A stretch of DNA of 64,000 nucleotides. Origin: Eledone cirrhosa. Its lineage: Eukaryota. Positions 46,021-50,585 of this stretch are shown in pieces. The notes below the pieces were generated by a model. The model was not told where the DNA came from. It worked only from the letters and a program-made list of their open reading frames with translations, and did no database searches. The translations under genes were made by a program, and so were the position numbers. Positions within the stretch are counted from its first letter, which is position 1. Every line of letters starts with the position of its first letter. The stretch spans positions 16,678,001 through 16,742,000 of the forward strand of contig OZ024758.1 in assembly GCA_964016885.1 (NCBI GenBank). Reading direction: 5' to 3'.

Positions 46021-46540
46021 TATTGTTATATTTGGGGAGGGTCATATTTGCGTAATATTGCCAGAATTAATAACAGAACACACTCACTGTTTGGTTGGTT
46101 TTCGCTTCTCGCTGTCTTTTATATATATATATCTGCGATCTAACTTACTCGGTCCTCAATGTTGCCATTGACTGACCGGCGGTCAAAAATAATACAGATA
46201 CAATATAGACAAACACATATATATATAGTTTACATAAATCTTTCGTTGCACATCTGCAACATCGTCAGTGGTGTTATATTCATTGTTCCTCCTGTTGTGT
46301 TGTATGTCTACGCCATTTTTTTTGTTCAGTCTGTCTATATATTTATTTATTTATTTGCTTGTTTGTTTATCTTATTTTATTTTGTCTTCTTTGCGCATGC
46401 GTTTGCGTGTGTGTATAGTGTTATGTGTGATGTGTGACTAGTGTGTATAGTGTTGTGTCTGCTGGGTGACTAGTGTGTGTTTATGTGCTTGTGTATGTAT
46501 TTATTTATCTTATTTTATTTAATTTAATTTACTTATTTAT

Positions 46541-47298
46541 TTATACTTCTCTTAGGTCAGTGTTGTTTGTTTGGGTGTTGTTGTTGTTCCACTCATTCTT
46601 TCTGTTTAGCTTTGGTCTTCTAATTTCTATTTCACTGGCCTCTCTGATTTGCCTATCTGCTGGGTCATTCCTATGTTTAGATATTATTCTAATTTCTATG
46701 TTGTCTATGTTACCGTCATGATGTTGTCTAGCATGTTCGTATAGTACTGACCCGTTTTTTCGTCCTTTTAGTTCCCCCCAGTGTTGGTCTATCCTTTCAC
46801 CTATGCTACGAGCTGTCTCACCTATGTATGTTGTTGTCGTGTTTCTGCAAGTACCCTCTGTACATCTTATGCTATAGACTACGTTTCTAGTTTTACAGTT
46901 TATCCGGGGGTTCACCTTACATATGATACATTTCCTATTGGTACAGTGGGTTTTCTTAAAAGGGTAGGTTTTGCTGATCAGGGATTTTATGGTGGTTCCT
47001 GGCTTTTCTACCACCTTTATTTTTAAGTGGGTCTTTCTCAGGGCCTTTCTACACTGGTTAGCTAATTTCCCTCCAGGGGTGGCGTCCACAAACATGACAC
47101 TCTGATATCTCTGGTTGTCGTACCATGATGTGGCCTTCCCTATCTTATGTCTAGCCCTATCTAAGCTATTCCATGATTTGCTCCTGTATAGTGGGCAAAT
47201 TCCTTTCATGTCCAGTTCTATGAGGGTCTTATACTTTTCCATGGCTCCTTCGTATACTCTGACTCTGTCTCTTTGGTTGTAGCCAGAGAACTGCATGC
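46541..47298 (-). pseudogene. Inverted duplicate of the PLE C-terminal region (thumb end + GIY-YIG)
   Basis: MQFSGYNQRD...TDLREV is identical to the C-terminus of the plus-strand ORF. The N-terminal MYYFHYY.. is antisense read-through. Confidence 0.9.
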
Positions 47299-47637
47299 AG
47301 TGACCACAGTAGTAATAACGGTAACAATACGAACAACAACAACAACAATAACCACAGTGGTAATAATGGAAATAGTACATGTAGCAACATCAACAAAAAC
47401 AAGAAACATAATAATAGTAACAACCACAATGGTAGAAATAGCAGTAACAACAACAATAACGGTGAAGTAAACAACAATACATCTAGCAATCATAACAATA
47501 ATAATATTAATGCTAAGGATAGAAACAACAACAACCACCATGATAACAATAATAGCAACACACACAACTATGACGATAGAAATAACGACAACCCCTTAGA
47601 GAAACTATTTTTCAACCCAGCTGACAAAACATATAAG

Positions 47638-49998
47638 ATGGGTAATATCTATCCTACGAGGTTACCCTTTAATAAAAGAGTTTGCATACCACAACAAATA
47701 GATGACGAGACGGAGGCACAGTTCACCATAGCTAGAAATAAGATTAGACAAGTAGTAGACAGGTACACTATGAGACAGAGCAGACCAGAGGCCCAACAAC
47801 TTGGGATAAAACCTGTAGAAGGCTTGGTTAGCCTCAAGCAGCGCACAAGGGATGGTGAGGTAGTGTGTCTACCCACAGATAAGTCTGGTAGGATGTCAAT
47901 AGATAGCATGCCGAACTACATCGAGGCAATGCAACCCCACATCACCAACACGAGCGAAGTTGCACAACTAACACACGATGGGAGAGAAAAAATCCTCAAC
48001 GCTCACATGATGATGTGGACTGACATCCTAAAGCCAAGCAGACGCACTGCCAACAACTTCCAGGCGTCTAACAATGGCATACCACCCTTGTATGGGCTCC
48101 GCAAAGACCACAAGACAGTCGACGACCCGACAATAGGACCACCAACAAGACCTGTATGCGGAGCTAATATAGCTAGCAACTACAGGATCTCCTACTTCCT
48201 CTCAATGGTTATACGCCCCATAATCAAGATGTCCCCAGATGTATGTGAAAGTACAGAGGACCTCCTCAGCAGAATCAGTGAGTGCAACAAAAACAGGAGC
48301 CTATCCAACTGCATAATAGGCAGCATGGATGTGGTGTCACTGTACCCATCCATTAACATTGATTTTGCTGTGAAAAGATGTGTGGAGATGATCATTGAGA
48401 GTGAGGTGGAGTTCTGCGACGTCGACACAGACGAACTGGGCCTCCTACTTAGACTTACCTACGACACTGACTACCTAGACAGCCATGACCTTAGATGTTT
48501 CTGCCCTAGTAGACCTATAAGAGGTAGACCCCCCACCATAACCTCAATGGCTAAAAAGACTCCCATAGGAAGGTGGATTGGGTGGACCAAAGCTATACGG
48601 ACCCCCCAAAACACTGATCAGGTAAGAAAAATGGTCGCACATGCAATAGGGGCTAGTATCAAAACTACCCTAAAGGGCCACATATTTAAGTTCAATGAGA
48701 AAATCTACACTCAAAATGAGGGAGCAGCCATCGGCGTCAGCATAGCTGGCGATGTTGCCAACCTTTTCATGGTATGGTGGGAAAGGAGACTTAAAGATCT
48801 CCTTAATGAAAGCTCCATAGACCTCATCATGTACTCTCGTTATGTAGACGATATCAATATAGTTATAAGAACACCCCCACTAGAGAGCACTAACAAGTTT
48901 GATTTAGAACGTAGCACGATGGAAAGCATCCAGCAGATAGCTAATTCCATACACCAGAGTATAACTGTAACTATAGACTTCCCTTCCAAACACCCTAACA
49001 ATAGACTATCTGTATTAGACACAGAACTCTGGATTAACACTATAGACGAGAGAGCCCAAATTCTCCACTCACACTATGCTAAACCCATGGCCTCCAAATA
49101 CCTGATACTCAAAAACTCAGCAATGTCCAGTAGTGCTAAGTTTAATATTCTGATCGCAGATTTGGTACGAGTGATGAAGAATGTGTCCAGCATGTGCGAC
49201 CCAACAGAAATGGAAGGACACATCCAACACTTCATCAACCGCATGCAGTTCTCTGGCTACAACCAAAGAGACAGAGTCAGAGTATACGAAGGAGCCATGG
49301 AAAAGTATAAGACCCTCATAGAACTGGACATGAAAGGAATTTGCCCACTATACAGGAGCAAATCATGGAATAGCTTAGATAGGGCTAGACATAAGATAGG
49401 GAAGGCCACATCATGGTACGACAACCAGAGATATCAGAGTGTCATGTTTGTGGACGCCACCCCTGGAGGGAAATTAGCTAACCAGTGTAGAAAGGCCCTG
49501 AGAAAGACCCACTTAAAAATAAAGGTGGTAGAAAAGCCAGGAACCACCATAAAATCCCTGATCAGCAAAACCTACCCTTTTAAGAAAACCCACTGTACCA
49601 ATAGGAAATGTATCATATGTAAGGTGAACCCCCGGATAAACTGTAAAACTAGAAACGTAGTCTATAGCATAAGATGTACAGAGGGTACTTGCAGAAACAC
49701 GACAACAACATACATAGGTGAGACAGCTCGTAGCATAGGTGAAAGGATAGACCAACACTGGGGGGAACTAAAAGGACGAAAAAACGGGTCAGTACTATAC
49801 GAACATGCTAGACAACATCATGACGGTAACATAGACAACATAGAAATTAGAATAATATCTAAACATAGGAATGACCCAGCAGATAGGCAAATCAGAGAGG
49901 CCAGTGAAATAGAAATTAGAAGACCAAAGCTAAACAGAAAGAATGAGTGGAACAACAACAACACCCAAACAAACAACACTGACCTAAGAGAAGTATAA
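47638..49998 (+). CDS. Penelope-like reverse transcriptase + Cys-rich linker + GIY-YIG endonuclease (786 aa from first Met; frame open from ~47299)
   Basis: TDKSG, LYGLRKDHK, TRPV, SMDVVSLYPSI, QNEGAAIG, YSRYVDD, VLDTEL, HYAKP; linker CTNRKCIIC..C; NVVYSIRC...YIGETARSIGERIDQH...EH...RQIREASEI...LN. Confidence 0.95.
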   Translation: MGNIYPTRLPFNKRVCIPQQIDDETEAQFTIARNKIRQVVDRYTMRQSRPEAQQLGIKPVEGLVSLKQRTRDGEVVCLPTDKSGRMSIDSMPNYIEAMQPHITNTSEVAQLTHDGREKILNAHMMMWTDILKPSRRTANNFQASNNGIPPLYGLRKDHKTVDDPTIGPPTRPVCGANIASNYRISYFLSMVIRPIIKMSPDVCESTEDLLSRISECNKNRSLSNCIIGSMDVVSLYPSINIDFAVKRCVEMIIESEVEFCDVDTDELGLLLRLTYDTDYLDSHDLRCFCPSRPIRGRPPTITSMAKKTPIGRWIGWTKAIRTPQNTDQVRKMVAHAIGASIKTTLKGHIFKFNEKIYTQNEGAAIGVSIAGDVANLFMVWWERRLKDLLNESSIDLIMYSRYVDDINIVIRTPPLESTNKFDLERSTMESIQQIANSIHQSITVTIDFPSKHPNNRLSVLDTELWINTIDERAQILHSHYAKPMASKYLILKNSAMSSSAKFNILIADLVRVMKNVSSMCDPTEMEGHIQHFINRMQFSGYNQRDRVRVYEGAMEKYKTLIELDMKGICPLYRSKSWNSLDRARHKIGKATSWYDNQRYQSVMFVDATPGGKLANQCRKALRKTHLKIKVVEKPGTTIKSLISKTYPFKKTHCTNRKCIICKVNPRINCKTRNVVYSIRCTEGTCRNTTTTYIGETARSIGERIDQHWGELKGRKNGSVLYEHARQHHDGNIDNIEIRIISKHRNDPADRQIREASEIEIRRPKLNRKNEWNNNNTQTNNTDLREV

Positions 49999-50268
49999 AT
50001 AAATAAGTAAATTAAATTAAATAAAATAAGATAAATAAATACATACACAAGCACATAAACACACACTAGTCACCCAGCAGACACAACACTATACACACTA
50101 GTCACACATCACACATAACACTATACACACACGCAAACGCATGCGCAAAGAAGACAAAATAAAATAAGATAAACAAACAAGCAAATAAATAAATAAATAT
50201 ATAGACAGACTGAACAAAAAAAATGGCGTAGACATACAACACAACAGGAGGAACAATGAATATAACAC

Positions 50269-50306
50269 CACTGACGATGTTGCAGATGTGCAACGAAAGA
50301 TTTATG
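50269..50306 (+). ncRNA. Minimal hammerhead in the PLE 3' repeat (mirror copy 46233-46270, minus)
   Basis: ca CTGACGA t gttgca gatg tgcaac GAAAG at TTA tg: strong stem II, G-U pair in stem III, very short stem I. Confidence 0.75.
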
Positions 50307-50585
50307 TAAACTATATATATATGTGTTTGTCTATATTGTATCTGTATTATTTTTGACCGCCGGTCAGTCAATGGCAACATTGAGGACCGAGTAAGTTAGA
50401 TCGCAGATATATATATATAAAAGACAGCGAGAAGCGAAAACCAACCAAACAGTGAGTGTGTTCTGTTATTAATTCTGGCAATATTACGCAAATATGACCC
50501 TCCCCAAATATAACAATATCTGTTTCGACACACGATTTCATATAAAAAACCTCGCAAAACTATATATATATATATATATATATAA

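Follow-up and report, generated by a model that had tools for sequence, protein, structure and literature searches.

A 64,000-nucleotide stretch of the Eledone cirrhosa genome (GenBank assembly GCA_964016885.1, contig OZ024758.1, positions 16,678,001–16,742,000 of the forward strand; hereafter the window, whose own positions are used throughout) carries a Penelope-like element (PLE) that encodes a reverse transcriptase (RT) and a GIY-YIG endonuclease. Here we describe this copy, the high-copy family to which it belongs and a wider protein lineage that shares a conserved insert in the RT fingers.

The element lies between two (TA)n arrays (45069–46021 on the left and 50561–51108 on the right) that share one interruption, TAAATTTA, which occurs 23 times in the left array and 10 times in the right. 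An earlier reading made from the letters alone (the sequence-only reading) had described AATT-punctuated TA on both sides; the punctuation is indeed common to both flanks, but its form is slightly unlike plain AATT. Two inverted arms (46020–47301 and 49238–50519) differ at a single position (47299/49240), which falls at the inversion junction, and are identical over 1,279 bp, in keeping with the ~1.28-kb arms without differences that had been noted. The left arm proper (46020–47298, minus strand, equal to 49241–50519) is a copy of the 3′ end of the element, comprising the nuclease, the 3′ untranslated region (UTR) and a hammerhead-like motif, and stops at the first of three fixed end sites of the family (end site 1). 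The inversion junction is a 12-nt palindrome (47290–47301) with 1–4 nt of microhomology between arm and body.

The frame that is open in the window copy runs from 47263 to 49998. Within it, a 5′-truncated open reading frame (ORF; 47298–49998) corresponds to codons ~311–1209 of a 1,209-amino-acid family protein; this and the features that follow are on the plus strand. It begins with an Asn-rich low-complexity linker (47298–47590), the length of which at this position varies among relatives. The RT core (47875–48852) extends from TDKSG through RKDHK, motif A (48328) and GAAIG (motif B′) to YVDD (48841), and includes the conserved core (48433–48633) of a lineage-specific insert of ~70 amino acids between motifs A and B′. 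A change private to this copy, P881S (49009–49011), lies in RT motif E. A short Cys linker, C-x4-C-x2-C-x7-C (49594–49644), precedes the nuclease on its N-terminal side, where a Cys-rich linker had previously been read, and the GIY-YIG endonuclease itself (49657–49950) has CCHH together with R, H, E and N residues.

The 3′ UTR contains a minimal type I hammerhead-like motif (50269–50307, plus strand; mirror copy near 46268 on the minus strand), recognized with a descriptor of our own; the parse at 50271 has a stem II of 6 bp, a stem III of 3 bp and a stem I of only 2 bp. A minimal hammerhead also parses in the 3′ UTRs of 8 of 21 relatives, and the occurrence of such motifs in the element and its relatives agrees with passages of PMC4209133. 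An Rfam search of the window returned no match, the hammerhead region included, and free folding of that region was unremarkable (z = +0.97). The start of a next unit is also present (50494–50562, plus strand), consisting of the start codon and first 22 codons and including a ‘tail’ (50520–50562) that stops at end site 2.

A truncated copy of a high-copy family

Searching the 3.0-Gb genome with the RT region returned 2,200 candidates. The 40 full-length matches that we scored are ~100% identical and are often spaced 4.12 kb apart; the tandem unit is 4,124 bp in length and encodes the 1,209-amino-acid RT and GIY-YIG protein, the ATG of which lies within the terminal repeat. The element shows these features of endonuclease-bearing (EN+) PLEs: one ORF with a telomerase-like RT and a GIY-YIG nuclease, tandem units, inverted arms (pseudo-long terminal repeats, pseudo-LTRs) and a tail with three end sites. 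Compared with full-length copies, the window copy starts at ORF nucleotide 930 (codon 310/311) and lacks the first 310 codons, and has neither the family start codon at the front of the ORF nor the N-terminal domain. The only ATG of the unit that it retains (50494) enters the TA flank after 22 codons. Its frame is open upstream only by virtue of the inverted arm, from which reading continues into codon 310/311 of the ORF.

Private changes are few, amounting to two substitutions in 2,697 bp (48711, silent, and 49009, P881S), neither of which occurs in any of the 22 other near-full copies compared; the second replaces a proline that 92 of 93 aligned relatives have in that column. At a rate given in passages of PMC13282606 (a distance of 0.09 per 25 million years), this number of changes would correspond, as a rough inference, to an age of ~0.2 million years. 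With no differences between the arms and so few private changes, the identification of a recently inserted PLE holds. The window copy is very probably a recent, 5′-truncated insertion of a high-copy PLE with copies that terminate in TA microsatellites; the protein of a full-length tandem copy elsewhere in the genome is likely to have made it in trans.

The sequence-only reading had also taken the copy to be catalytically intact-looking and a candidate driver. Neither description survives the absence of the front 310 codons and a substitution at a near-invariant RT proline. One could still suppose that the copy is an active source that makes RT and nuclease from an internal Met (around codon 427), and the frame is open from that Met through to the stop, with every catalytic motif kept. 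We give this very little credence, as the copy is without the conserved N-terminal region, PPKF and RW, the motif E proline has been replaced and the two private changes recur in none of the 22 other copies compared. The window copy is likely no source element; it represents an unremarkable dead end among the insertions of an active PLE family that targets TA.

Copies that could encode the full protein are present elsewhere. Exact read-through junctions number 237 genome-wide, and 22 of the first 30 examined are open for 500 codons; some of the copies at these 30 junctions are only 91–98% identical, so the family predates its latest burst. At best-match loci, a biased set, all 14 read-through starts give frames of 1,209–1,210 amino acids.

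A conserved insert in the RT fingers

The nearest named relative of the protein is from Octopus vulgaris (69% identity), and most of the other 119 relatives listed share 30–51%. A profile search of 1.84 billion representative sequences gave 2,674 matches at E ≤ 1e-30, a total that surely includes other PLEs; the best 150 of these were inspected. Members of the lineage carry the RT signatures TDKSG, RKDHK, GGxIG and WWD, and an insert of ~70 amino acids between motifs A and B′ in which 17 columns reach a conservation of 70% or more across 93 aligned sequences. The distance from motif A to motif C is 171 amino acids in this element and 162–202 in the lineage (183/266 proteins with both motifs found), compared with 78–101 in Nematis-like and Poseidon-like proteins (both motifs located in 201/239); three Neptunes measure 108 and three Hydras 95. 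The nuclease is conserved as well: each CCHH column is kept in 91–93 of the 93 aligned rows, and the GIY-YIG residues are conserved.

Pfam gave only a sub-threshold RVT_1 match for the window ORF and no match for the full protein, and a sequence-profile search of the PDB gave weak RT matches only. The predicted structure of the RT core (pLDDT 91) has telomerase RT as its closest fold (Z 15.3, root mean square deviation (rmsd) 3.5, 357 residues aligned), and this match tops both fold searches. A 192-amino-acid model of the motif A-to-C region aligns with Candida TERT over 123 residues (Z 6.6, rmsd 3.9), and with Tribolium TERT, which has no insertion in fingers domain (IFD), over 111 residues (Z 6.0, rmsd 3.0). 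Human TERT aligns with 102–104 of the 192 residues, about equal to RTs without an IFD, and fold searches with this model returned no match at Z ≥ 8. These model comparisons suggest, short of proof, that the insert does not have the TERT IFD fold.

Targeting of (TA)n tracts

The exact 30-nt terminal word occurs 3,368 times in the genome. Ends that pass directly into perfect (TA)4 total 2,773, of which 1,470 belong to end site 1, 271 to site 2 and 1,032 to site 3; the site-3 and read-through patterns were anchored differently and the end-site counts are not strictly nested. Among the first 30 terminal words, taken without selection, 3 are internal and the remaining 27 true ends all lie in TA tracts (median 136 nt), compared with a TA-tract share of 10–14% of positions in the window and 20 other loci. 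The family is strongly TA-targeted. A TA preference had been proposed in the sequence-only reading, and the flanks of genomic copies show strong enrichment in TA tracts rather than the lack of it that would have spoken against the proposal. Each of the three fixed end sites coincides with TA, TAT or ATAT of the element’s own sequence. Passages of PMC8557442 report a TA preference for Naiad and Hydra and a microsatellite bias for Neptune.

The same association could arise if copies were retained in TA tracts, or if the tracts grew after insertion, with the nuclease not choosing (TA)n; such tracts readily expand and make up 10–14% of sampled DNA. We consider this very unlikely, given that the 27 of 27 ends in TA tracts come from copies that are less than 1% diverged and that an identical tract interruption stands on either side of the window copy.

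A model for insertion

We propose that tandem units would give rise to read-through RNA, which would be translated, and that the nuclease would nick both strands of a (TA)n tract. A nicked 3′ end would then pair over 2–4 nt with a TA-bearing site in the RNA and prime cDNA synthesis. Two cDNAs, one per strand (here 1.28 and 3.26 kb), would stop early and be joined by microhomology, giving an inverted arm and a truncated body. The basic fingers insert would be likely to grip the template–primer duplex and so to aid priming from such a short match. Across 14 loci we found 13 inverted neighbours, 9 of which overlap by 1–11 nt, and their paired 5′ ends vary independently.

Parts of this scheme have precedents. 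In vitro, the tail ends of a Poseidon element equal internal RT start sites, and both strands are nicked at AT-rich DNA, according to passages of PMC11167929. Junction palindromes are read instead as self-priming in passages of PMC3846280, which also describe a tail and Asn-rich inserts like that at 47298–47590. As presented in parts of these papers, the Anolis Poseidon element PAc (PMC11167929) and the Adineta vaga Penelope families (PMC3846280) share with the family described here a start codon in the terminal repeat, fixed tail end sites, an inverted terminal arm and a junction palindrome, along with Asn-rich inserts in Adineta. Both are Penelope/Poseidon elements without the Cys linker that is present here, and two start sites are described for PAc, whereas this family has three end sites, each on TA.

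Placement among PLE clades

From 78 proteins, 3 of which had no parsable motif, 51 were aligned, and the removal of 12 fragmentary or redundant sequences left 39 rows and 353 columns for an unrooted tree in which the insert columns were excluded; outgroup labels were assigned by motif likeness to published alignments, not from named references. The lineage forms a single branch (support 100/99) with a stem of 1.25 changes per site. Neptune, Poseidon-like and Nematis-like rows cluster without it (84/87, unstarred), which leaves the lineage beside Hydra, on the same side of that branch; such a long branch in this position could be the product of attraction. Constraining the lineage with the three Neptune rows was rejected by the approximately unbiased (AU) test (p = 0.0196). 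The sequence-only reading had likened the Cys-rich linker to that of Neptune/Naiad-type PLEs without fixing the clade; a Neptune or Naiad type is not supported, given this result, the N-terminal position of the Naiad nuclease and a linker that is short like that of Nematis. A Naiad motif pattern had no match in the genome.

Nematis (passages and Figs S1, S2 and S7 of PMC8557442) has a C-terminal GIY-YIG nuclease with CCHH, a short Cys linker and a similar nuclease C terminus, but its RT has DKG, KTHK and GLAMG and no A–B′ insert, whereas the lineage has DKS, RKDHK, GGxIG and the insert. Neptune shares a CX2-5CxxC linker, CCHH, a C-terminal endonuclease, a microsatellite bias and a hammerhead (a minimal hammerhead-like motif here) in the terminal repeat. 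It differs in the spacing from CxxC to the next Cys (~22–25 amino acids; 7 here), in GLKF (PPKF here) and in DKG (DKS here), and it is defined as having no A–B′ insertion, whereas the A-to-C distance of this element exceeds that of the Neptunes in this genome by the margin given above (171 versus 108).

Hydra, as described in parts of PMC8557442, has in common with the element its (TA)n targeting, a KDHK in RT1, an S or T after DK, an RW motif and the lack of GxKF/Y. Its markers (RWK-like, DKT, loss of GxKF/Y and TA targeting) are similar, not identical, to those found here (KIRW, DKS, PPKF and TA targeting). The published Hydra pattern (no CCHH; CxCX5C; no IFD; MG[SA]YD in motif B′; generally <3 kb) contrasts with this element, which keeps CCHH and CX4CX2C, carries the insert and is 4.1 kb in length; a true Hydra from this genome likewise differs from it. 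Naiad and Chlamys, together with telomerase RT, have extra sequence at the same A–B′ position. In the two PLE clades, however, the nuclease is N-terminal and the insert is ~20 (Naiad) or 20–40 (Chlamys) amino acids in length, compared with a C-terminal nuclease and ~70 amino acids with a motif of their own here. Coprina and Athena are endonuclease-free and telomere-associated, whereas here a nuclease is present and the copies are dispersed. As tested, the lineage fits no named clade.

The lineage could nevertheless belong to a named clade, either the paraphyletic Neptune or Nematis, as a subgroup that evolved fast and acquired an insert, and its members may already be filed in Repbase or Dfam as Penelope. 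We hold this to be a serious though lesser possibility. The CX2-5CxxC linker and CCHH are common to Neptune and Nematis, the short spacing fits Nematis, and the thin sampling of references and the AU result for Nematis-like rows given below both leave room for it; the long, strongly supported stem, the separate grouping of Neptune, Poseidon-like and Nematis-like rows, the rejection of a Neptune placement and the set TDKSG, RKDHK, GGxIG and WWD in place of DKG, PK[IV]HK or KTHK, and G[TL]AMG all argue otherwise.

On balance, we see an even chance that the lineage is a previously unnamed deep PLE clade, possibly sister to Hydra, with its own ~70-amino-acid fingers domain at the position of the telomerase IFD. 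On the same reading, a family of this lineage is bursting now, with ends that are nearly identical and number ~3,000, and nicked (TA)n would pair with TA of the family's RNA to start reverse transcription, much as telomerase makes use of a minimal primer match. Several points weigh against the insertion model and the separate placement proposed above. The tree was built without Naiad, Chlamys, Coprina, Athena or TERT, its three Neptune and three Hydra rows all come from this genome, and constraining the lineage with Nematis-like rows was not rejected (AU test, p = 0.18). The overlap with TA at the three end sites may partly reflect where alignments stop. A TA-tract end was seen in only 2 of the 25 metagenomic relatives examined, many of them on short contigs, which means that an insert by itself is not enough to give TA targeting. 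In passages of PMC11167929 the start sites in the RNA are not homologous to the cut DNA, unlike the 2–4-nt match here. The preference in nicking, the microhomology priming and the function of the insert are properties that we infer for this protein.

Mini-elements and other repeats of the window

The sequence-only reading had placed one TA-preferring GIY-YIG nickase behind all of the mini-elements in the window. When 15 mini-element segments picked by eye were compared with the family unit, 3 matched and 12 gave no match at E ≤ 1e-4; of the matching segments, one is a piece of the RT at 12489 (98%), and the other two are terminal matches of 68–70 bp (83–90% identity). Other PLE clades are present: a Hydra motif has 1,194 matches in the genome, including an intact Hydra ORF, and Neptune and Nematis-like ORFs are found too. 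Hydra is described as TA-targeting in passages of PMC8557442. A single nickase for all of the mini-elements does not accord with these counts. That the family nonetheless also mobilizes the hairpin mini-elements is improbable: TA siting and inverted structure are shared and two segments resemble part of the family terminus, but most are unmatched, and Hydra, Neptune and Nematis-like PLEs provide alternative donors. This genome contains long uninterrupted ORFs of Hydra and Neptune elements at L204:541–2697, L141:4309–7122 and L143:1275–4562.

The RT fragment of the family (12489–12785, minus strand) is 297 bp in length and is bordered at one end by TA and at the other by a different retroelement-like sequence. 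A young, non-autonomous and retrozyme-like family of ~470 bp with an inverted arm (23451–24190) has 659 candidates and forms tandem arrays from G000:C2:176980693; its hammerhead core looks Hydra-like by eye. At 24560–25086, a hairpin mini-element has a minimal hammerhead that is clean, and 70 bp at one end that are 83% like the family terminus; it probably descends from an older sister of the family. Other hairpin mini-elements sited in TA tracts, unmatched to the family and each with genomic relatives, lie at 14450–14836, 15758–15975, 20892–21440, 26047–26243 and 27523–27934. At L049:1814–2454, internal RT pieces of the family are fused directly to a mini-element of the 14450 type, which suggests template switching or nested insertion.

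Other repeats of the window include a dispersed family with a minimal hammerhead and a palindromic (AT)n stem III (25120–25394, 26260–26460 and 55650–55850), satellite arrays with units of 27 bp (1610–3419; 67 copies, 97% matches) and 31 bp (9249–10902; 54 copies), and a partly tandem repeat of ~200 bp that resembles a short interspersed element (35031–35787 and many dispersed sites), with at least a dozen copies in the window.

Distribution and significance

Pieces that are at least 99% identical to the element occur in all eight sequencing runs examined (X1, X2, X4 and X7–X11), which are labelled as eight different organisms; one run has a very high depth of the element and fixed differences from the copies of this genome. 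Horizontal spread, close kin, and dietary or contaminant DNA are possible explanations. No canonical PLE turned up when viral contigs were scanned.

A full-text search of the literature, with Repbase, Dfam and Arkhipova 2006 outside its range, returned no description of such an insert-bearing lineage. In the supplement of PMC8557442, in which long protein cells extend to 400 characters, five of six signature motifs score 0 and the sixth occurs once, in an unrelated place; the supplement text of PMC6515669, over 10,427 characters, contains no signature motif, and a 2026 preprint (10.64898/2026.07.22.740005), in the part considered, deals with named PLE clades only. PLE insertion structure and TA targeting are known already; what may be new is the protein lineage, marked by the conserved insert in its RT fingers. 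Canonical PLEs with a C-terminal nuclease are stated, in passages of PMC8557442, to be without an insertion in the fingers (IFD). A large lineage with a fingers insert of telomerase size bears on the diversification of PLE and telomerase RTs. The same source, in the sections drawn on here, sees the next task in setting up an in vitro system with which to study inverted structures and microsatellite bias. With full-length open copies in abundance, a target that is simple and three end sites already mapped, the family described here makes microhomology priming directly testable.

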